Below are positions 13,459 to 37,069 of a DNA stretch of 38,208 nt, one piece after another (the stretch's first letter is position 1; each line of letters begins with the position of its first letter). Under the pieces are notes generated by a model. That model was not told the origin of the DNA. It was given only the letters and a program-made list of their open reading frames with translations, and ran no database searches. The position numbers and the translations under genes are program-made. Source of the DNA: an uncultured Phycisphaerales bacterium (GTDB taxonomy: Bacteria > Planctomycetota > Phycisphaerae > UBA1845 > CAIVHJ01); assembly GCA_903905665.1 (NCBI GenBank), contig CAIVHJ010000330.1:1-38208 (forward strand), given 5' to 3'.

Positions 13459-14355
13459 TTAGTAGTCCGTTACCACTTGAGCAAATTCGTGGAGATCAGT
13501 CCCATATTGCGCTGTTACAACCAATTTCTGTACCTCTTGCATCCATAATCCCCATTCCGTAGGGCCTCTCGTATCGTCATTGAGCATCATGTGTTTTGCT
13601 TTAATCCCTTGAATCCAAAAATTGCGCCATTCCAGATACAGCCGGCTCATCAGAGCAGAATTGAGGTCCGTTTTCATCAGATTGCCGTAGTAGAAGAATT
13701 TCATAGCATAGGTCTGATTATTATCTGGAGCGCAATCCAAAATAAACTCGTCATAGTCCTCATCTCCCATCGGATAGGCTTTGGATGGCCTTCCAACAAG
13801 CGATGGGCGAGCTAATCTAAACTCTTCAACGACATGCTCAAATTTAATCGGGTTTTTTTGGTCGATAATCATATAGCCTGACCCAGAAGCGGGAGCAACC
13901 CTAAACCCTGGTGTAACCGTAAGCGTGATCGTTCCTGAATTGTTCGCCAAAGCAATAATTTGAGAGGCCGAAGCAATCCCTGTCCCCGATGTGATGACAA
14001 TTTCCTTTCCAATGACATCAGAAAACCCTTGTGTTGACCCCGAAGCCATGATAAGCGTTGTTGTAGATCCACCTTGGGCTGTTCCTATGACTGACCCAAA
14101 CATAATTTGAGCGCTCATGTCACTTGAAAAGTCCGTTGGGCATGAATACCGGCTTTGTCCAGGGACAAGGATTCCATAAGCGAAGGTTTGCATGATTTTT
14201 GGTTGTCGGCAAGCCTTCCAAACCTCATTTTTGAGTTGTTCCATGACCTCATTCTGGTATCGAAGCGTCGTCGCAGAGTCAGGATGGCTCTCGTTGGCCT
14301 GTTGTAGCCCTTCAGTTACGATACTAGCGAGCGTTGGCAGCGTTGGCGACGCCAT
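13459..14355 (-). CDS. Hypothetical virion protein, 298 aa (head-tail adaptor candidate by position)
   Basis: First gene after the GT/MT cassette downstream of the capsid gene. Its start overlaps the GT 3' end by 32 nt. No named motif recognised. Confidence 0.65.
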   Translation of the reverse strand: MASPTLPTLASIVTEGLQQANESHPDSATTLRYQNEVMEQLKNEVWKACRQPKIMQTFAYGILVPGQSRYSCPTDFSSDMSAQIMFGSVIGTAQGGSTTTLIMASGSTQGFSDVIGKEIVITSGTGIASASQIIALANNSGTITLTVTPGFRVAPASGSGYMIIDQKNPIKFEHVVEEFRLARPSLVGRPSKAYPMGDEDYDEFILDCAPDNNQTYAMKFFYYGNLMKTDLNSALMSRLYLEWRNFWIQGIKAKHMMLNDDTRGPTEWGLWMQEVQKLVVTAQYGTDLHEFAQVVTDY

Positions 14356-15454
14356 TTAAGACCTCCTGATACGCTTCGACCCACATGGGCCACATTTTAT
14401 CGCAGTCAAAATGCCTTTCAACCGTCTGCCGAGCCGCGATTCCCATGCGGCGCCGTAACTGATCGTCCTGTGTCATTTGATTAAGGGCAAGAAGCCACCC
14501 TGATGGCGAATTGGCTTCGACAAACATCCCGTTATCCGCCACCAAGTCCATCATCTCCGCATAGGGGGAGCAGAATGAACTTACACTTGGAACCTCTAGG
14601 GCCGCCATTTCTAACCATTTGATTGAGCTCTTGCAATTATTGAAATCCGAATCCACCAATGGGATAACGGCGAAGTCCAAATCAAGGATTGCCGAAACGA
14701 ATGGATAGGCTGGCGTTGGGCACCACCCTCGGTATTCAATACGATTCGGGTCTATGCCTTCGAGTGTCCCTTCAAATTTCTGCCCTAAGATCACGAGCGT
14801 GACGTTAGGATTGACCCGCATAAACTCTGGAAGCACCTGGGCGAGGATCTTCCAGTCCTCGAAATGGCTATAGCCTCCAGACCATCCAACTCGAATGCCT
14901 TTGTGGGTTTGGAAAGGGAGTTTCTGCCACAATGACAGGTCAATGCAATTTGGCAGCACCTTGATGTTGGGATTAAACTCACTAAAAACCTTCGCCAGTA
15001 TGGGCGTCGTTGTAGTAACCATGTCAGCTACAGACATGGCCTTTCTTGCCCGTTCAAGGCCGGCTTTGTTCTTAGCAAGATCGATATTCTTTCCATCCGT
15101 CCAGATATCCAGGCTCCCGCCTTTATAGGGGTGACTGTAATTCTCTGTTCCAAAATCCTTGTAGTGTGGCGATAATGGGTCTATTCGGAATAGATTGTCG
15201 TCCCAATCCACGATGACTTTCTTTCCGAGTTTTTTAAACCCCTCAATAGCATTGCAGAACTTCTCATCAAATACGCGGGGAGTCACGCAGATATCAGCCC
15301 ATAAAAGTTTTAAGGCAATATCATCATCGCTATCACCCTTTTCGACGTGCTTGACCTCAAAAGTCTTGTCGTGAAGAGCAGCGGTCTGTAGCGGTTGTGC
15401 GAGGCGATACCATCCGCACCCGCCATTATCTCTGAGGAAGTAGAGGACTTTCAT
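14324..15454 (-). CDS. Glycosyltransferase (GT-B fold, GT1/GT4-like), 376 aa
   Basis: Start MKVLYFLRDNGGCGWYRLAQP is ATGA-coupled to the methyltransferase stop and has GGAGG upstream. The C-terminal half has a GT-B signature (VGWSGG..., ...CKSSIKWLEMAALEVPSVSS, an E-x7-E-like motif). Confidence 0.8.
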   Translation of the reverse strand: MKVLYFLRDNGGCGWYRLAQPLQTAALHDKTFEVKHVEKGDSDDDIALKLLWADICVTPRVFDEKFCNAIEGFKKLGKKVIVDWDDNLFRIDPLSPHYKDFGTENYSHPYKGGSLDIWTDGKNIDLAKNKAGLERARKAMSVADMVTTTTPILAKVFSEFNPNIKVLPNCIDLSLWQKLPFQTHKGIRVGWSGGYSHFEDWKILAQVLPEFMRVNPNVTLVILGQKFEGTLEGIDPNRIEYRGWCPTPAYPFVSAILDLDFAVIPLVDSDFNNCKSSIKWLEMAALEVPSVSSFCSPYAEMMDLVADNGMFVEANSPSGWLLALNQMTQDDQLRRRMGIAARQTVERHFDCDKMWPMWVEAYQEVLNGVANAANAR

Positions 15455-16134
15455 AGCGTCCCCTCCATCATCCACTCTGTCATGTTCGTGTTCACGTACG
15501 GAATAACGGGATGACGCTGGCCTGGGACTCGGTTAGGTGTTCGTCCAGGCATATCAGAAATGTTTAATTGGCCCTTTGCGGCCTCTTTAGCGAACCAAGA
15601 CCGTTTATACCACCAGCGATACCCATCCCACCGGGATTCCTGCTGTTCAGTTTCATCAAGAGGATGGATCGAAACGTAGCATTTCCCGGTCGTTTTCAAT
15701 GCTTTTGACAATGCTTTGCATAAATCTTGGATATCATCCGGGTGGACATGAACCGTAACAGAATTGCAAAGGATGTAGTCGTACTGGTCTGCTACTTCAA
15801 ATGAATCCATCAATTGAAGAATGGGAATGTGCTTTGACTTTAGTCTAACGCACTCCAACATCGCTTCTTTTAGAAGACCAACAGAAATATCTGACCCGTT
15901 AAAATTCCCGTCTTCAAGATAATCAACAAGTCGTACTGTCCCTCGGAGGGCTCCGCATCCGTAGTCCAAGAAGGAATGGGTAGGTCGCAGACCTTGTGCA
16001 ATCATAAAATCATGCTGCATCCTCGCTTCATATCCGACGTTTCCTCCAGAGAAAACCGCGGCTTCCTCAGAGGTTCCATTAAACGCCCATCGTTTCTGAT
16101 AATCGGGCCAATGATTAATAGCTACAGCGGTCAC
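15451..16134 (-). CDS. Class I SAM-dependent methyltransferase, 227 aa
   Basis: Motif I is FLDYGCGALRG. An acidic post-I residue (NGSDIS) and the motif IV-like YDYILCNSV fit the Rossmann-fold pattern. Confidence 0.8.
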   Translation of the reverse strand: MTAVAINHWPDYQKRWAFNGTSEEAAVFSGGNVGYEARMQHDFMIAQGLRPTHSFLDYGCGALRGTVRLVDYLEDGNFNGSDISVGLLKEAMLECVRLKSKHIPILQLMDSFEVADQYDYILCNSVTVHVHPDDIQDLCKALSKALKTTGKCYVSIHPLDETEQQESRWDGYRWWYKRSWFAKEAAKGQLNISDMPGRTPNRVPGQRHPVIPYVNTNMTEWMMEGTL

Positions 16135-30328: not shown

Positions 30329-30523
30329 ATGAAAACATTAGCAGAGTTCATTAACGAATGCGGATCGGTCGCAGAAGCAGCCCGAAAGCTAACGGTCAGC
30401 CGGCAAACAATTGATAGATGGCAATCGGGGGCATTTAAGCCGTCACGGGCTCTGGTGGAGTTGGCGAGATTAAAGGAAGTTGATCTGCTAACAAAACCGA
30501 TTGAGGTACCCACTTCCGATTAA
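30329..30523 (+). CDS. Cro/YdaS-like HTH DNA-binding protein, 64 aa
   Basis: AGGAGG lies 5 nt before ATG 30329. MKTLAEFINECGSVAEAARKLTVSRQTIDRWQSG fits the Cro/YdaS-type HTH pattern. Its 3' end overlaps the convergent primase gene by 89 nt. Confidence 0.7.
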   Translation: MKTLAEFINECGSVAEAARKLTVSRQTIDRWQSGAFKPSRALVELARLKEVDLLTKPIEVPTSD

Positions 30524-32090
30524 CAAAATCTCCCGTCCTAACGACTTTTGATTTCCAGCCATATCGCCGGAGGATGGACCCAATCCGCCTCTGAATAGTG
30601 ATATCGAGGTGGGCTTTATCAACCCCTACCGCGCTCGCGATATCAGTCATGGCGATTTCAGTTTGACATGATTCTTTGATAAATGCCTGAATGAGATTTT
30701 CCCATTCATCGAATTGCCTACGGTCCTCTTGTTCCTGGGTGGTGGCTTCCTCGGGAACCTTGTACCAATCCTCATTGGTTAGATACCGCGAGAGTGCTTC
30801 AGCGTAGAGTTGTTCCCGGTCTAACCGTAAACGGTCGAGCTGGATATGGCCGCACGTGATCGGCCAAAAACGACGGGCACCCGTGGAGTCTCGGAGATAG
30901 TGTTGTTCATTGGTAGTGCCTACAAAGATCGATTGCCTTGGGTGGTCCTGGGTGGCGCGGGCGTAGGGTTGGCGGTAACGGTCAGTCCGGCAGGTGATAA
31001 CCTTCTTGATTCTGGTGGTATCGGCGCGAGAGAAGGAATCGAGATCGGCTATTTCAACGATGAGCTTGCCGGCCAGGGCTACGAAAAAGTCCTTTGATGT
31101 GATCTCTTCGGAGGCTTCCATATACCACTTCCCGCCAATCGCTTCGAGAGCCTTGGACTTGAAAATGCCCTGCTTACCTTCAAGGATGACCATGTTATCT
31201 ACCTGGCACCCAGGCTGAAACACGCGGGCAACGATCCCTAACCAAAAGTTGCGAGATACGGCAGCGGAATACCCTGATTGTTGACACCCAAAGTAATCGG
31301 CAAAGAAACTGTCTATCCGTTGTGTACCATCCCATCTAAGACTGCGTATCCATTCACGGGGCTCGTTGCGAAGGCATTGATGACCGCGGCATCGGACGGC
31401 ATCTGATACGTTGGCAACGGTCAGGCGGGTCAGGCCAAGTGTTCTTTGGAGTTTGACGGTCAAGTTGATATCGTCTATGTCCTGCCACTCGCGGGCACCT
31501 TGGTTTCGTGGCCCTTGGGTGAAATACCGCTGGTAAAATTCATCGTACCAAACGATGTTTTTGTATTCGTCACTATGCGCCAGGACACGTACCACATTAT
31601 CTACGTTGGCCGGGGGAGTTCCCCCCTTCGGACCACGGGATAGACCTAGTTGGTCCCATAGGGCATCGGCATCGGGCGGCACCTCGTCCGGGGCTTCGAT
31701 GACTTCGACCGGGACGGCGGGGAACTCACCTTTGGCAAAGGTTATCATGCACCCTTTGGCCCATTCCGCTAGTTGTTTCCATGTCATCCCATCCCGAGAT
31801 ACCGCCGCCGTTATATTCCATCCGTGTGGCTTACCATTTGGGATAATCATCTTTATTTCTAGGCACAAATCGTTTATTTGCTCCGCAAAGGCCCTAAATG
31901 TCATCCTGGACGCCTCAGTGGCGTCAGGCCATAAGATGACCTTACGTCCAGCATACTGGCTAGAATCAAGGGCTCCGTTGCGTAGTGCCGGGATACAGGC
32001 GACAGCGTACCCGGTCGCCACCTCTTCGGCTGCTTTGACCGCGGCGGCTTCGCAGATGATAAGGGGTTTATTAAGGTTTGATTCCGTCAT
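30435..32090 (-). CDS. Primase/helicase-type replication protein, VirE (VapE) family with Toprim-like N-terminal region
   Basis: P-loop ILEGKQGIFKSKALEAIGG. The VirE signature IVEIADLDSF...IKKVITCRTDRYRQPYARATQDHPRQSIFVGTTNEQHYLRDSTGARRFWPI is present. GAGGA SD upstream. Confidence 0.85.
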   Translation of the reverse strand: MTESNLNKPLIICEAAAVKAAEEVATGYAVACIPALRNGALDSSQYAGRKVILWPDATEASRMTFRAFAEQINDLCLEIKMIIPNGKPHGWNITAAVSRDGMTWKQLAEWAKGCMITFAKGEFPAVPVEVIEAPDEVPPDADALWDQLGLSRGPKGGTPPANVDNVVRVLAHSDEYKNIVWYDEFYQRYFTQGPRNQGAREWQDIDDINLTVKLQRTLGLTRLTVANVSDAVRCRGHQCLRNEPREWIRSLRWDGTQRIDSFFADYFGCQQSGYSAAVSRNFWLGIVARVFQPGCQVDNMVILEGKQGIFKSKALEAIGGKWYMEASEEITSKDFFVALAGKLIVEIADLDSFSRADTTRIKKVITCRTDRYRQPYARATQDHPRQSIFVGTTNEQHYLRDSTGARRFWPITCGHIQLDRLRLDREQLYAEALSRYLTNEDWYKVPEEATTQEQEDRRQFDEWENLIQAFIKESCQTEIAMTDIASAVGVDKAHLDITIQRRIGSILRRYGWKSKVVRTGDFVNRKWVPQSVLLADQLPLISPTPPEPVTA

Positions 32091-32370
32091 TGAAATCCTC
32101 TATTGATTTAGCGATTATTCCGATACCACCTAGCCGGCGAACGGTTTCTATAAACGATTCTTGACCCTTGGTTGCGCGCCCGCGGGGCGCCTTAACCTCG
32201 ACCGCCAGAAAACGGCCAGTCTTGGTAAGTCCAATCAGGTCAGCGGATCCAGGGCAAAGGCCGAATCGGAGCTTCGGATCGTTGCAAAAACCCACGTTAT
32301 TTCTCCATAGCCTGTGGCCGTGGCGAGAGGCTTCGAGTTGGATCTGTCGCATGAGATCGGCTTCGGTCAA
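32071..32370 (-). CDS. VRR-NUC domain nuclease (PD-(D/E)xK)
   Basis: GSADLIGLTKTGRFLAVEVKAPRGRATKGQESFIETVRRLGGIG matches the VRR-NUC pattern (D...E-x-K ... Q). ATGA-coupled to the helicase. Confidence 0.85.
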   Translation of the reverse strand: MTEADLMRQIQLEASRHGHRLWRNNVGFCNDPKLRFGLCPGSADLIGLTKTGRFLAVEVKAPRGRATKGQESFIETVRRLGGIGIIAKSIEDFNDGIKP

Positions 32371-33764
32371 ACGGCAATACCTCGGTTGCGCTTCTGTTGT
32401 CGTCCTTTGAACACAAAATACGCCCAGGCCCTTGGATTCTTGTATCCACGCGCCCGCCCAATCTCGAAGAGTTCTTGCATCGATTGGGCCATTCCCTGCT
32501 GCCGTCGTACCATCTTACGGGCTATCTCCGCTTGGATCTCCAAGAGTTGACCGTCTTTCTCAATGATTTCACGCGGTTTGACCGGGAAGACTTCGCCGCA
32601 ATACTTACAGACCGAGAGGCCGGACGGCATGGCGGCGAAACATTTGGGGCATATTCTAACGGAGACTCCAGCCCCTCCCTCTCCCCGAGCCCTTTGAGGT
32701 CGTCCTTCAAGGCTCCATTCGCGGTCATCGTCGGGGAGTCCGTGGCGACTCCAATTGCCAACGTGATCGAGTATGATAGCCTGATTCTTTCCTTCAAAAG
32801 GTCGCAACGCTCGACCGACCTGTTGCATAAAATATCCAAGGGATTGGGTTGGGCGCAGCAGGATTGCAGCTTCGATTGCAGGAACATCAAATCCTTCGCC
32901 AAAAATTTCGACGTTCGATAAGACTTGTATATTTCCTTTCTTAAAATTCTCAATAGCCCGGTCGCGCTCATCCTCTGGCGTTTCTCCGTCAACGTGGGCA
33001 GCGGGGATACCGGCGGCGTTGAATTGCTCCACGACATGCTTGGAATGCTGTATGGAGGCACAGAAAACAACAGCACGTCGCCCTTCACAGAGTCTCTTGT
33101 AATGCTCAATAGCGTTACCGGTGATACTCGGCCTATCGACGACAGAATTGATTTCTCGTTTTTCATAATCACCCATCCTTGTATGTATTCCTGTTAGGTC
33201 GACGTTCGATGGAGCATATAGCTTATAAGGAGAGAGGTAGCCTTGCTTGGTCAGGGTTTGGACGGTAGGCCCAACGATTAAGTTACTGAAATATGTCCCG
33301 AGTCCTTTACCGTCAAGTCTTTCAGGGGTGGCAGTAATTCCAATATGATATGAAGTTCCATACCTGGCAAAGATGTCGGACCAACTAGATGCCGCGAGGT
33401 GGTGAGCTTCATCCCAGACAATGAGGCGGGGTTCAGAAACCCGTGCAAGACGCCGTGCAAGTGTCTGCACAGATGCGAGTTGCACCCAATGGCTTCTATC
33501 TTCGGAGAATCCTGCGCTGATGATTCCATATTTTATTCCCTCCAAATCGAATGCTTGTGCTGACTGTTTGATGAGTTCCCGGCGATGGACAACGAACAGG
33601 CACCGCATCCCCTTACTGGCGGCGGTGTGGAGCATGTGAGCGGTCAATAAAGTCTTGCCGCTCCCGGTCGGAGCGGTATACAAGATCGACTTACATCCCT
33701 GGGCCATGAGTGACCGCATTTGGTTTATCGCGTCGGTTTGGTAAGGACGGAGTTGGATGGACAC
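32367..33764 (-). CDS. SF2 DEAD/DEAH-box DNA helicase (ResIII + helicase C) with C-terminal zinc ribbon
   Basis: LRPYQ, motif I APTGSGKT, motif II VWDEAHH, motif III ITATPER and motif VI QQVGRALR are present. Zinc ribbon: CPKCFAAMPSGLSVCKYCG. GTG start. Confidence 0.9.
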   Translation of the reverse strand: MSIQLRPYQTDAINQMRSLMAQGCKSILYTAPTGSGKTLLTAHMLHTAASKGMRCLFVVHRRELIKQSAQAFDLEGIKYGIISAGFSEDRSHWVQLASVQTLARRLARVSEPRLIVWDEAHHLAASSWSDIFARYGTSYHIGITATPERLDGKGLGTYFSNLIVGPTVQTLTKQGYLSPYKLYAPSNVDLTGIHTRMGDYEKREINSVVDRPSITGNAIEHYKRLCEGRRAVVFCASIQHSKHVVEQFNAAGIPAAHVDGETPEDERDRAIENFKKGNIQVLSNVEIFGEGFDVPAIEAAILLRPTQSLGYFMQQVGRALRPFEGKNQAIILDHVGNWSRHGLPDDDREWSLEGRPQRARGEGGAGVSVRICPKCFAAMPSGLSVCKYCGEVFPVKPREIIEKDGQLLEIQAEIARKMVRRQQGMAQSMQELFEIGRARGYKNPRAWAYFVFKGRQQKRNRGIAV

Positions 33765-33770
33765 CCGCCC

Positions 33771-33799
33771 ATATTACTTTTCTCTTGCAAGCGTGTCAA
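33771..33799 (-). promoter_or_regulatory. Predicted promoter of the replication arm: TTGACA-17-TAATAT (minus strand)
   Basis: -35 at 33799-33794 and -10 at 33776-33771. Only 6 nt separate it from the GTG start at 33764. Confidence 0.55.
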
Positions 33800-33813
33800 C
33801 TATTTGTTAGATT
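33785..33813 (+). promoter_or_regulatory. Predicted promoter of the recombination arm: TTGCAA-17-TAGATT
   Basis: -35 at 33785-33790, back-to-back with the minus-strand -35. -10 at 33808-33813. An 18-nt leader containing AAGGAG precedes ATG 33832. Confidence 0.5.
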
Positions 33814-33831
33814 ATCGCGCAAGGAGAACTT

Positions 33832-34002
33832 ATGAAACCAAAGAACCGAGATGAACTAATCGCCTTCCGGGTCAAACCCGCCGAGCGCCGATATATTGAG
33901 AGAGAGGCCGCCGAGAGAAGCCAGCGCCTTTCCGAATATATAAGGAACATGGTACTTCCGTCGGGCATTATTATTGACCACGACGGTAAGATTAAGGCTT
34001 GA
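33832..34002 (+). CDS. Ribbon-helix-helix (CopG/Arc/MobC-like) protein, 56 aa (not in ORF track)
   Basis: AAGGAG lies 7 nt before the ATG. MKPKNRDELIAFRVKPAERRYIEREAAERSQRLSEYIRNMVL fits the RHH pattern: beta-strand (IAFRV), then helices, with SEYIR typical. Confidence 0.55.
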   Translation: MKPKNRDELIAFRVKPAERRYIEREAAERSQRLSEYIRNMVLPSGIIIDHDGKIKA

Positions 34003-34028
34003 CAAACGTATAACAGATTTCCTAAGAT
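33999..34028 (+). promoter_or_regulatory. Predicted internal promoter TTGACA-18-TAAGAT just before the exonuclease gene
   Basis: -35 at 33999-34004 and -10 at 34023-34028. 6 nt (cgcccc) separate it from ATG 34035, with no SD. Confidence 0.45.
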
Positions 34029-34034
34029 CGCCCC

Positions 34035-34949
34035 ATGATCGAAACCATCCAACCCAAAGACGAGGCGCATTGGCTGTCTCTCCGCAAGCAGGATGTGACC
34101 TCAACCGAGGTCGCGGCCCTGTTTGGTATCTCTCCTTATATTACGGCCTACGAGTTATGGCATCGAAAACACGATAACTTGGACGTGGAATTTGAGGTCA
34201 ACGAGCGCATGAAGTGGGGGACGAGGTTGCAGGACTCGATAGCCGAGGGGATCGCAGAGGATTATAAATGGGCTATCCGAAAGAAAACGGAGTATTTACG
34301 TGACACCGATTTACGCGCCGGAGCCAGTTTCGATTTTGAGTGCAAGTCGCATGGGGAAGAATGGTTGCTCGAAATCAAAAACGTAGACTCATTAGCTTTC
34401 CGCGACGGATGGATCGTTGACGGCGATAATGTAGAAGCTCCGCCACATATCGAGCTACAGGTTCAGCAACAGTTGGCATTGTCGGGATTAAAGGTCGCAT
34501 TTATCGGCGCCCTTATAGGAGGAAATCGTGTCGTCCTCATCCGTCGTGAACCTGATCGCGTGGTTATTCAGTCCATCCAAAAAAGAATACGACAGTTTTG
34601 GGATTCGGTCAGAGATCATAGAGAACCACAACCAGACTTTGGACGGGATGCGGATTTCATTGCCAAGCTCTATTCTTTTGCGGAACCAGGCAAGGTCTTT
34701 AACGCAGACGATCGCGTGTCCAAACTCGCCTTCGCTTACAAGCAAGCCGGCCAGGAAGAGAAGCAAGCCAAAGAAAAAAAGGACGCCTCCAAAGCTGAAA
34801 TCCTGACCATCGTTGGCGCCGCGGAGAAAGTGGTAGGAGAGACGTTCACGATCTCGGCGGGGCTGATAGGCCCTTGCCACATGGACTATGACAGGCCGGG
34901 ATATAGGAACTTTAAAGTCAATTTCAAAAAGGAGAAACCCAATGCCTGA
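34035..34949 (+). CDS. YqaJ-type viral recombinase exonuclease (lambda Exo-like PD-(D/E)xK)
   Basis: HWLSLRKQDVTSTEVAALFGISPYITAYELWHRK matches the YqaJ N-terminal pattern. It is followed directly by recT, the classical Exo/RecT pair. Confidence 0.85.
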   Translation: MIETIQPKDEAHWLSLRKQDVTSTEVAALFGISPYITAYELWHRKHDNLDVEFEVNERMKWGTRLQDSIAEGIAEDYKWAIRKKTEYLRDTDLRAGASFDFECKSHGEEWLLEIKNVDSLAFRDGWIVDGDNVEAPPHIELQVQQQLALSGLKVAFIGALIGGNRVVLIRREPDRVVIQSIQKRIRQFWDSVRDHREPQPDFGRDADFIAKLYSFAEPGKVFNADDRVSKLAFAYKQAGQEEKQAKEKKDASKAEILTIVGAAEKVVGETFTISAGLIGPCHMDYDRPGYRNFKVNFKKEKPNA

Positions 34950-35736
34950 ATCCAAGAAAATCACCGCCCAAGACGAAGTGTGCCTTGCCTTAACACAAGC
35001 CGAGCCGACGTTTAAGATGAGTCTACCGCCCCAGATACCGTCGCAGAAGTTTATTCGAGTCGCCCAAACCGCAATCAGGCAGAACCCTGGACTCGCATCT
35101 CTTGATCGCCAGAGTCTATATGCGGCCTTTCATAAATGCGCTGCCGATGGCCTCTTGCCAGATGGACGGGAAGCGGCGATTGTTCCGTTCGGGCAGACGG
35201 CGACATATATGCCGATGATCCAAGGTATTTGTAAGAAAGCGAGGAACTCCGGTGAAATCAAAACAATCAACGCCCAAATCGTCTACAAGAACGACGCTTA
35301 CGAACATTGGATCGACGAGTCGGGCGAGCATTTCAAACATGTCCCGGCTCGTGGCGACCGCGGAGAGGTTCTTTTAGTCTATGCTTTCTGCCAAACAAAA
35401 GACGACGGTGTGTTCTTTGAAGAACTCAGTATGGATGACATCGCCGCCATCGAGAAGATGTCCAAGCAAAAAGGCGGCCCGTGGTCCGGCCCCTTCCGCA
35501 CGGAGATGATGAGGAAAAGCGCGATTCGGCGCCTCTTGAAATACCGCGTTCCTTCCAGTACAGACGTGGACGACATCATCCGTGAAAATGACGAACCTCT
35601 AGAGCCAGTCCCGCCGGCGCCTGTTAAACCCGCAGAGACTACATCATCCAGATTACGTGATGTTGTTGCGACGACAGCGGAGCCCGTGGGACAAGAATCC
35701 GATGACGTTGCCGCCAGAGAAGAACTGCCGTTATGA
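34942..35736 (+). CDS. recT: RecT-family single-strand annealing protein
   Basis: GGAGA SD before ATG 34942 (MPESKKIT...). RecT-like blocks: FIRVAQTAIRQNPGL, ADGLLPDGREAAIVPFG, MIQGICKKARNSGEIKTINAQIVYKNDAYEH, GPWSGPFRTEMMRKSAIRRLLKY. Confidence 0.85.
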   Translation: MPESKKITAQDEVCLALTQAEPTFKMSLPPQIPSQKFIRVAQTAIRQNPGLASLDRQSLYAAFHKCAADGLLPDGREAAIVPFGQTATYMPMIQGICKKARNSGEIKTINAQIVYKNDAYEHWIDESGEHFKHVPARGDRGEVLLVYAFCQTKDDGVFFEELSMDDIAAIEKMSKQKGGPWSGPFRTEMMRKSAIRRLLKYRVPSSTDVDDIIRENDEPLEPVPPAPVKPAETTSSRLRDVVATTAEPVGQESDDVAAREELPL

Positions 35737-35837
35737 AGTGGTGGAAGATGGTTGCAAATATACTAGCGATCCTTTTACTCCCAGTCCTCCTCCCCTTGGC
35801 GTTCTTTTTGGAGTGGGTGAGGGGGCGTTGTAATTGA
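35733..35837 (+). CDS. Micro-ORF, 34 aa, single TM helix (not in ORF track)
   Basis: ATGA-coupled to the recT stop. Translation: MKWWKMVANILAILLLPVLLPLAFFLEWVRGRCN. Confidence 0.4.
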   Translation: MKWWKMVANILAILLLPVLLPLAFFLEWVRGRCN

Positions 35838-35840
35838 CCC

Positions 35841-35966
35841 ATGACCGACTTTGAGTGGTTCATTAAAGTGTGCGACTGGGAATTTGATCATTTGGAAGAA
35901 CGCACCGATCGCCTGGACTTTTGCATCTGGCAAGCGATCATAGCGCGGTTGAAAGGGTGGGCGTGA
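35841..35966 (+). CDS. Micro-ORF, 41 aa, ending ...ARLKGWA (not in ORF track)
   Basis: Translation: MTDFEWFIKVCDWEFDHLEERTDRLDFCIWQAIIARLKGWA. No clear SD. It starts 3 nt after the previous stop. Confidence 0.35.
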   Translation: MTDFEWFIKVCDWEFDHLEERTDRLDFCIWQAIIARLKGWA

Positions 35967-36097
35967 TGATTGAGATTCTAGAATCTGCGTCAAGGTATGG
36001 AAATTGGCAAGTGTATTCCTTTAAAAATGAAGATCGCGACTCCATATTTAAGGCTGTTCGAGAGCAGGTGATCGCTCAACTGATGGGTTGGGCGTGA
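35966..36097 (+). CDS. Micro-ORF, 43 aa, ending ...AQLMGWA (not in ORF track)
   Basis: The ATG overlaps the previous TGA (TGATG), with GGGTGGG upstream. Translation: MIEILESASRYGNWQVYSFKNEDRDSIFKAVREQVIAQLMGWA. The C-terminus is similar to that of the preceding micro-ORF. Confidence 0.4.
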   Translation: MIEILESASRYGNWQVYSFKNEDRDSIFKAVREQVIAQLMGWA

Positions 36098-36130
36098 CGA
36101 CTTATCGACGAATGAAAAGGAGAGACGACT

Positions 36131-37069
36131 ATGTGTAAGTTTTTCAGCGCCGTCAGTGACGGAAAAGGCCGTGTTGAGTTTTTTAAATTGGAAGATATCG
36201 TGAGGATCATGTCCTCCGGCAATCCTGAAGGGTACGATTTTAACAGTCACACCAGCATCCTGCACTCGCTCGGGATTAAAGGCAAAGACGAAGATGTCTG
36301 GAATAAGTGGGAGTATGAACCGGAAACGAAAACGCTGACGATCGATGGGGCTATTCATGCTGACGATTCGGTGGAGGTTCAGAAAAAATTAGACGGTTTT
36401 TTTGTCGGGAAAGGTATCGGTTATTTGAGGAATCTGTACAACCGGAACTCGGGCTACGGGAACTCGGGCGACTGGAACTCGGGCGGCGGGAACTCGGGCT
36501 ACTGGAACTCGGGCAACGGGAACTCGGGCAACTGTAACTCGGGCAACTGTAACTCGGGCAGCGGGAACTCGGGCGACTGGAACTCGGGCAACCGGAACTC
36601 GGGCTGCGGGAACTCGGGCGACAGGAACTCGGGCTACGGGAACTCGGGCGACTGGAACTCGGGCGGCGGGAACTCGGGCGACTGGAACTCGGGCAACTGT
36701 AACTCGGGCAGCGGGAACTCGGGCAACTGGAACTCGGGCTACGGGAACTCGGGCAACGGGATTCTAAATTCCTTCTGCACAAAACGCCAATGGATGCTGT
36801 TTGACAAACCCTGCACGAAAGAACAATATGAAAAGATAGACGCTCTCGATTGGTCGTGGTTTTTTATTAATCGGTGGGTCAGTGAATCCGACATGAGCGA
36901 TCAAGAGAAAAAGGACCATCCGTCATTCAAGACATGCAGCGGCTATCTGAAAACCATTGACTACAAAGAGGCGTTCAAAGCGTGTCCGGAATCGTTTATT
37001 GATGCGGTTAAGAAACTCAAGAATTTCGACAAGAAGAAGTTTAAAGAGATATCCGGACTAGAGGTCTGA
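36131..37069 (+). CDS. Pentapeptide-type repeat protein, 312 aa (21 x [x-x-N-S-G]) flanked by N- and C-terminal globular domains
   Basis: AAAGGAGAG SD upstream. N-domain: MCKFFSAVSDGKG...NSHTSILHSLGIKGKDEDVWNKWEYEPETKTLTIDG. The repeats span aa 104-208 (NRNSG YGNSG DWNSG GGNSG ...). The C-domain is rich in W/F/K. Confidence 0.85.
   Translation: MCKFFSAVSDGKGRVEFFKLEDIVRIMSSGNPEGYDFNSHTSILHSLGIKGKDEDVWNKWEYEPETKTLTIDGAIHADDSVEVQKKLDGFFVGKGIGYLRNLYNRNSGYGNSGDWNSGGGNSGYWNSGNGNSGNCNSGNCNSGSGNSGDWNSGNRNSGCGNSGDRNSGYGNSGDWNSGGGNSGDWNSGNCNSGSGNSGNWNSGYGNSGNGILNSFCTKRQWMLFDKPCTKEQYEKIDALDWSWFFINRWVSESDMSDQEKKDHPSFKTCSGYLKTIDYKEAFKACPESFIDAVKKLKNFDKKKFKEISGLEV
36440..36760 (+). repeat. 15-bp coding tandem repeat, 21 units, invariant core AACTCGGGC
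   Basis: Read directly from the sequence. A 48-nt block (ggctacgggaactcgggcgactggaactcgggcggcgggaactcgggc) recurs exactly 180 nt apart (from 36452 and 36632). The block caactgtaactcgggcagcgggaactcgggc recurs 150 nt apart. Confidence 0.95.

Follow-up and report, generated by a model that had tools for sequence, protein, structure and literature searches.

A tandem x-x-N-S-G array with constant scaffold codons in a putative early host-interaction gene of an uncultured phage

The MPTR repeats of mycobacterial PPE proteins (Pfam PF01469, Pentapeptide_2; NxGxGNxG) are polymorphic tandem repeats of unknown structure in an N-x-G-x-x register, and the PPE-MPTR proteins that carry them are secreted mycobacterial surface proteins (PMC7028111). 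Here we describe a gene with repeats in the same register on a phage contig that also encodes a portal, a terminase, exo/RecT and VapE and belongs to an assembly from an uncultured Phycisphaerales bacterium (GCA_903905665.1, contig CAIVHJ010000330.1; the whole stretch analyzed, positions 1–38208, is referred to as the window). The open reading frame (ORF) at 36131..37069 of the + strand, stop codon included, was intact with an ATG start and encoded a complete, putatively non-structural protein of 312 aa, in which an array of 21 pentapeptide units lies between an N-terminal and a C-terminal domain; the identical protein was found on five contigs. Unlike the PPE-MPTR proteins, it had neither a PPE domain in a Pfam scan at E ≤ 10 nor an ESX secretion context, its N-S-G units were much stricter, its N- and C-terminal domains were its own, and it is probably a cytoplasmic early protein of the phage. 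We tentatively favor the reading that it is an early host-interaction protein, whose array serves as a recombining, diversified recognition or tether module.

A described relative in a cultured phage is gp041 of Rheinheimera phage Barba18A (annotated as 'pentapeptide', YP_009822918.1); Clostridioides phage AR1086-1 and Roseobacter phage CRP-811 encode relatives too. Like the protein in the window, gp041 has an xxN[T/S]G array followed by the same C-terminal motifs (FNT..LVFN ... LPNFD..VFEEISGI), which correspond to the start and the end of the C-terminal domain, lies in an early genome context and shows the same behavior of the array at the DNA level. It differs in that a DUF7666 domain takes the place of the N-terminal domain found here, which we call the MCxFFS head, in that its units are NTG instead of NSG, and in that its C-terminal domain is shorter and lacks the MT..EK/GGYLK core.

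Constant scaffold and variable diresidue in the array

Residues 104–208 of the protein (36440..36754, + strand) consisted of exactly 21 in-frame x-x-N-S-G units of 15 nt, as identified with Tandem Repeats Finder and by inspection of the units. An earlier note on this DNA, made from the sequence alone, had reported an uninterrupted run of 21 units at these residues, and both the count and the order of units that it listed were exact. Tandem Repeats Finder returned a single array at 36439–36761 (period 15, 21.5 copies, 85% matches, score 422), which was the sole long direct repeat of the window. The two flanking domains of approximately 100 aa each, likewise described by the earlier note, were conserved and confidently folded by AlphaFold2. 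The MCxFFS head, delimited by conservation, comprised aa 1–103 (36131..36439, +) and was predicted to adopt an alpha/beta fold; the C-terminal domain (C-domain), delimited by conservation, AlphaFold2 and HMMER, comprised aa 209–312 (36755..37066, +) and opened with a degenerate 22nd unit, NGILN.

At the DNA level, every unit of the array followed the pattern NNC NGN AAC TCG GGC. The nine scaffold nucleotides were invariant in 21 of 21 units, and the first two codons of each unit held all of the variation; accordingly, the 9-mer AACTCGGGC occurred 21 times, always within the array, against a chance expectation of 0.32. In 11 arrays containing 219 units, only 3 of 657 scaffold codons differed from the majority codon within the same array. 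Between genes, the scaffold sets were replaced by synonymous ones (AAC TCG GGC, AAC AGC GGA, AAC AGT GGG, AAT AGC GGC and AAC TCC GGG), with the scaffold Ser encoded by TCG, AGC, AGT or TCC. Codon bias was ruled out as the cause of the identical scaffold codons, because outside the array the gene used two Asn, five Ser and four Gly codons. The entropy within units lay mainly at nt 1 and nt 4, and to a lesser extent at nt 2, 5 and 6. In this pattern, the scaffold evolves in concert while diversity is maintained at a pair of neighboring residues. We named this pair the repeat-variable diresidue, in a formal parallel to TAL effectors.

Among 2515 units, the main diresidues were NR (316), DR (276), NW (253) and DW (220). 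Positions 1 and 2 assorted independently for these main alleles (odds ratio 1.00, D/N versus R/W), and a charge pairing of D with R within units was rejected on the same value. The order of diresidues along 148 arrays was near random, with no periodicity at lags 2–6, and a super-period of 10 or 20 residues was tested and rejected. The earlier note had also described an alternation of Gly and bulky residues at position 2. This description was valid for the protein in the window, in which 9 of the 21 units had Gly at position 2 and none of these were adjacent (p ~0.002 from the combinatorial count C(13,9)/C(21,9)), but it did not extend to the family, since homologues had adjacent Gly residues or no Gly at this position and showed no periodicity at the lags given above. 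Within the array, units 2–6 and 14–18 formed a diverged higher-order duplicate.

Variants in unit number and unit content were found both for this gene and for gp041. A contig with 99.9% identity to the window carried the same gene with a clean in-frame deletion of 12 units (180 nt) between the diverged copies of the higher-order block, a variant that may reflect collapse of the repeat in short-read assembly. Seven alleles of gp041 of equal length from near-identical Barba isolates had six polymorphic sites in 978 nt; five of the six were in variable codons, at nt 1, 4 or 5 of units 9, 19, 22 and 23, and the remaining one was in the C-domain. These seven alleles had no polymorphic site in the 300 nt upstream of gp041, and Barba19A had one extra unit and different leading units. 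The isolate data therefore indicated active recombinational shuffling, which is compatible with positive selection and is no proof of selection; because the units are otherwise identical, conversion between units is visible only at the variable codons.

Adenine mutagenesis of the diversity-generating retroelement type was considered for the NAC/NGG variation and dropped, as the invariant AAC codon (Asn) was unmutated and the changes among the isolates included C>T and G>A. No reverse-transcriptase gene was present among the ORFs scanned, a scan outside which many small ORFs of the window fell. A Ser/Pro/Arg-rich ORF of 143 aa on the opposite strand (36351..36782, −), which appeared in a mechanical ORF listing, was rejected as a gene and regarded as a by-product of the repeat; it is open because the repeat unit has no stop codons on the reverse strand, and its conservation was accounted for by the protein on the + strand. 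An N-glycosylation sequon in the array was likewise rejected by inspection, there being no N-x-S/T in register.

Family architecture, gene context and expression

In the Pfam scan, the protein matched PF01469 over three stretches (E = 4.7e-17, 62 bits against a cut-off of 26.4), whereas PF00805, PF13599 and PF13576 gave no match even at E ≤ 10. This result agreed with the proposal of the earlier note that the repeat departs from the A(D/N)LXX consensus toward the NxGxGNxG type. Homologues carried a precomputed PF01469 assignment, and PHROG 14105 (function unknown) covered residues 151–312 (E = 2e-37). From these matches and the 'pentapeptide' annotation in the Barba phages, the family is an existing, uncharacterized catalogue family. 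A search of 5.8 billion proteins gave 7174 matches, and in the best 120 of the 7174 homologues the uninterrupted array runs ranged from 2 to about 40 units. With the C-domain alone as the query, an exhaustive HMMER search gave 442 clusters (50% identity, E ≤ 1e-3); in the full-length matches inspected, units of the form xxN[ST]G or xxSTG nearly always stood ahead of the C-domain. Its conserved motifs were LF[ND]K, W..x..MT..EK, GGYLK, YKEAW and LxNFD...F.EI[ST]G.

The part N-terminal to the array and C-domain varied among the homologues: it was absent, an MCxFFS head, a DUF7666 domain (PF24703), or DUF7666 preceded by a further domain. This further domain, of approximately 125 aa, matched NCBIfam NF049995, 'A1S_2505 family phage non-structural protein', in three homologues (P0177, P0191 and P0199), in which the order was then DUF7666, array and C-domain. 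The MCxFFS head had invariant residues at Met1-Cys2, Ser6, Ser9, Gly11, Ser39-His40, Ser42, Asp55, Asn58, Tyr62 and Asp79, and its conserved stretches also included Asn38-Ser39-His40-Thr41-Ser42 and Glu61-Tyr62. Relatives of the head retrieved with a 12-sequence profile of the N-terminal domain showed that in other phages it was fused to ankyrin repeats (P0317, P0328 and P0332), leucine-rich repeats (LRRs; P0331, P0338 and P0364), DUF4116 (P0334, P0353 and P0374), or arrays of xxSV tetrapeptides or GVNSSx hexapeptides (L009 42–791, L017 6001–6786, L019 6001–6792, L020 768–1529, L021 6001–6612 and L008 8001–8567). Because heads vary before the array and C-domain and the MCxFFS head carries other repeats, the array and C-domain form a constant core behind exchangeable heads, and the MCxFFS head can take one repeat module in place of another.

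The tetrapeptide arrays on the MCxFFS head read [W/R/G][A/D/N]-S-V and the hexapeptide arrays GVN[S/Y]S[K/D/Y]. Both showed a similar pattern of identical scaffold codons, for example NGG GNC AGT GTA, in which the first base of the NGG codon (W/R/G) varied. Full-length xxSV proteins ended in a different C-domain (SSFF..W..I.H..G.NPF...DLWE.GLVPSFDG). Across all architectures with an MCxFFS head Cys2 was essentially invariant, with one Ser substitution (P0056), which suggests that Cys2 may act as an N-terminal nucleophile once Met is removed. DUF7666 also occurred without any pentapeptide array in many cultured phages (H82–H99, from Pseudomonas, Salmonella, Ralstonia, Vibrio and Acinetobacter phages), and a DUF7666-matching ORF of Acinetobacter phage fLi-Aba03 was annotated as a 'putative ADP-ribosyltransferase'.

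Neither terminal domain gave a significant match among PDB sequences, PADLOC, NCBIfam and Foldseek. In particular, a profile search of PDB sequences and a PADLOC scan gave no match, and Foldseek gave none at E ≤ 0.001 against PDB (searched twice) and BFVD; weak matches to proteasome subunits (E > 1) were disregarded. Megablast and tblastn of the gene against 50,697 GenBank phages also gave no match, because the low-complexity filter masks the repeat and the flanking domains are too divergent, and relatives among the GenBank phages emerged only from a search with a DUF7666-type homologue. A scan of GTDB genomes yielded only two contigs, both from metagenome-assembled genomes, and the host was therefore not assignable. 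In the literature searched, there was no functional study of DUF7666, of PF01469/Pentapeptide_2 in phages, or of pentapeptide repeats in anti-defense. The modular core, the swaps of heads and repeat types, the homogeneity of scaffold codons with hypervariability of the diresidue, and the real-time variation in cultured isolates were likewise not found in that literature.

The gene came just after, and in the same direction as, the genes of a YqaJ-type exonuclease (34035–34949, +; Pfam PF09588, E = 1.4e-18) and a RecT annealase (34888–35736, +; Pfam PF03837, E = 5.8e-33). These neighbors confirmed the location after exo/recT, in an arm outside the virion genes, that had been claimed from the sequence. 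The arm was divergent from the genes of a VapE-like protein (PF05272) and a DEAD/ResIII helicase (30435–33764, −), and lay away from the arm of portal, terminase and fiber genes. The relatives of the gene sat among small early or accessory genes with no conserved neighbor; their contexts included AAA_24/DnaB-like, ERF/Prim-Pol, cI-like helix-turn-helix/SNF2, terminase/GIY-YIG and, in Clostridioides phage AR1086-1, kptA/nrdD.

For Barba18A, gp041 belongs to the early transcript cluster and not to the late structural cluster (PMC9305737 Table S2). At the first time point its transcript reached a log2 of counts per million of 15.0 under high-nutrient and 15.7 under low-nutrient conditions, a level comparable to those of DNA polymerase and primase and the highest in the small-gene block gp024–gp061, and it later dropped by ~2.5 log2 units, about 5-fold (PMC9305737 Table S2). 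This is evidence at the family level only, because in gp041 the head is DUF7666 and the C-domain is shortened. Two genes downstream of gp041, gp043 (L022 7687–8304) is a classical PF00805 pentapeptide-repeat gene that is also transcribed early. The preference of the earlier note for a non-structural over a structural role was supported by the non-virion arm, the contexts of the relatives, the early gp041 transcript, and the fusions to the 'phage non-structural protein' domain.

Several other features of the window were recorded. Sigma-70-like hexamer pairs were present on both strands around 33771–34028, and the first ORF of the rightward arm was a small NikA-like ORF at 33832–34002. The spacer at 35736–36131 contained no more than two tiny ORFs, which overlapped. 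Contig L006 and an ENA contig, independent short-read assemblies of this phage, both started exactly 70 nt upstream of the gene (~36061), and another started at ~35864, which points to a break in assembly or to population variation within this spacer. A glycosyltransferase-like ORF (14324–15475, −; PHROG 7162, E = 5.7e-39) lay within the virion-gene arm between the portal/terminase and the tail/fiber genes. There were no tRNA genes and no Rfam family at the gathering threshold in the window. PHROG matches were lacking for most ORFs in both the leftward virion arm and the small-gene block at 25–30 kb, and the phage is therefore distant from cultured phages.

Readings of the array

According to the reading that we tentatively favor, the gene product would be a cytoplasmic, non-structural, early-expressed phage protein of a very large family. 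The core of this family is the pentapeptide array (x-x-N-[S/T]-G) together with the C-domain of ~100 aa, to which this phage adds an exchangeable head of ~100 aa marked by Cys2 and His40. In the array, the N-S-G positions would provide a constant scaffold, and the two variable positions would form an exposed and diversified surface, with mostly N/D/Y/H at the first and R/W/G/C/S/M at the second. Recombination within the array, by gain and loss of units and by conversion, would keep the scaffold codons identical while reshuffling the diresidues. The array would thus be a recognition or tether module of variable length and variable surface, a counterpart of the ankyrin or LRR repeats on the same head, and may engage a macromolecule of the host or of a competing element early in infection, in host takeover or counter-defense. 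The C-domain would supply the constant function, and the head an accessory, maybe catalytic, activity. The binding function, the target and an arms race as the driver are inferred.

Several points weigh against this proposal. Family members have no binding partner, phenotype or structure on record, and the searches above gave no homologue of known function for the N- or the C-terminal domain. The exposed surface is deduced from sequence variation, because the AlphaFold2 structure of the array was not confident, and a composition of N/S/G plus W/Y/R fits a disordered linker equally well. The early expression class is extrapolated, as the head and the C-domain of gp041 differ from those of the protein in the window. 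Finally, the changes in the Barba isolates reveal shuffling solely at positions at which the units were different to begin with, which leaves positive selection unproven.

A bolder extension of the recognition reading, to which we give only a slim chance, is that the family represents a self-diversifying modular recognition system, a five-residue analogue of TALE/PUF/PPR logic. With an N-[S/T]-G scaffold and an alphabet of {N, D, Y, H} x {R, W, G, S, M, C}, the order of diresidues would set a polymeric target (a nucleic acid, a glycan or an oligomeric defense protein), and recombination would re-program the specificity fast. The principle would then extend to the xxSV and GVNSSx arrays on the same head.

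The rival to be taken most seriously, although we consider it unlikely, is that the array is a disordered low-complexity linker or a 'sticker-spacer' with N/S/G as spacers and W/Y/R as stickers, which sets the distance between the N- and C-terminal domains or drives self-association or condensates, the mix of diresidues being kept for composition only. The structure predictions were in line with such a linker. AlphaFold2 with a 69-sequence alignment gave a predicted local distance difference test score (pLDDT) of ~80–98 for residues 1–103 and 216–312 (about 80–96 for the N-terminal domain and 90–98 for the C-domain) and of 23–30 for the array at residues 106–210, with a predicted TM-score (pTM) of 0.40. 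For a homologue with six units and a cleaner alignment of 27 sequences, the pLDDT of the array was 31–43 and the pTM was 0.45. The models of the array had no strands and no helical repeat, and the flanking domains, although confident, were not oriented relative to each other. The composition of the array (G 32, N 28, S 23, W 6, D 5, Y 4, C 4 and R 3), its highly variable length and the near-random order of diresidues also agreed with a linker. On the other hand, thousands of divergent homologues retained N-[S/T]-G in exact register although synonymous codons had turned over. Such retention is unusual for a disordered region constrained by composition alone and suggests a defined turn or ladder geometry. 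In addition, low pLDDT is weak evidence of disorder here, given that AlphaFold2 also fails on other PF01469-type repeats.

The earlier note had proposed a pentapeptide-repeat beta-helix for the array, which would imitate B-DNA and block a topoisomerase or a defense enzyme that binds DNA. The five-residue periodicity and the early, non-structural context are compatible with this proposal, and the low AlphaFold2 confidence may leave room for an unprecedented solenoid, as a failed prediction is not proof of absence. However, AlphaFold2 predicted no beta-helix in either run, and the variable positions had no lag-4 periodicity. N, S and G were the only invariant residues of the array, so that there was no conserved hydrophobic position equivalent to the invariant hydrophobic center residue of the classical repeats, whose models PF00805 and PF13599 did not match. 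The DNA-like negative surface expected by the note was not found: the array had 5 Asp and Glu against 3 Lys and Arg in 105 aa (4.8% acidic, net charge −2), 197 homologous arrays had a mean net charge of −0.02 per unit, and the whole 312-aa protein had a net charge of −4 and a pI of 5.7. A range of 2 to about 40 units also fits poorly with a fixed DNA footprint. The lack of a predicted beta-helix and of a negative DNA-like surface were outcomes that the earlier note itself had named as refuting its proposal, and these results made the DNA mimic very unlikely. An anti-defense role as such is possible, and PADLOC, PDB and Foldseek provided no lead to it.

It is more improbable still that the 15-bp array is primarily a DNA element and the peptide repeat its by-product. 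The array would then consist of iterons or a replication origin inside the gene for the protein that binds them, an arrangement known from lambda O/ori and SPP1 G38P/oriL. The perfect retention of the 9-mer in all units, the strict 15-bp phasing, the adjoining recombination/replication module with its VapE-like and DEAD-box helicase genes, and a domain-repeat-domain layout like that of lambda O would all suit such an element. They were outweighed by the conservation of N-[S/T]-G at the protein level over different codons, including switches between TCN and AGY serine codons, by the location of the variable nucleotides at first codon positions, which maximizes amino-acid change, and by copy numbers and unrelated replication modules that are atypical for iterons. 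The least probable reading is that of a structural protein, whether of the virion, of a fiber or injected, with a repeat that must oligomerize to fold, for example into a trimeric beta-structure. It draws on the fact that many fiber repeats fold only as trimers, which monomer AlphaFold2 would miss, but is opposed by the location of the gene in the early arm, across from the portal, terminase and fiber genes, by the early instead of late structural transcription of gp041, and by the family fusions to a 'phage non-structural protein' domain.

Implications and comparison with known systems

If the recognition reading is correct, the family, with >7000 database relatives including those of cultured Rheinheimera, Clostridioides and Roseobacter phages, would represent a very widespread, unstudied class of early phage host-interaction proteins with a built-in mechanism for quick change of surface and length. 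A layout of scaffold and variable diresidue at both the protein and the DNA level is rare in biology and would have engineering potential. At a minimum, PF01469-type repeats are not peculiar to mycobacteria, and Barba18A gp041 offers a tractable phage system for determining their structure.

Among the other systems compared, the classical pentapeptide-repeat proteins (PF00805: Qnr, MfpA and AlbG, with the Rfr fold) share the five-residue periodicity with the array, which in turn lacks their A(D/N)LXX consensus, hydrophobic center residue, hidden Markov model match, quadrilateral beta-helix (as judged by prediction) and acidic surface. The anti-restriction DNA mimics Ocr and ArdA are likewise encoded by early phage or plasmid accessory genes, but are strongly acidic and of defined length, whereas the array is nearly neutral and unconstrained in length. 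Lambda O with the ori iterons and SPP1 G38P with oriL also have a direct-repeat array in the middle of a gene of the replication/recombination region, between two protein domains. In the present gene, by contrast, the conservation lies at the protein level over synonymous codon sets, the 15-bp copies number in the tens compared with 4–6 iterons of ~19 bp, and the Pfam scan showed no DNA-binding domain signature in the protein.

TAL effectors are the textbook case of an organization with a scaffold and a variable diresidue. Their repeats are helical hairpins of 33–35 aa, compared with 5 aa for the units described here, and there is no sequence or fold relationship between the two. The likeness is formal, and consists in near-identical units at the DNA level, variability limited to two adjacent residues, variation in copy number, and recombination within the array.

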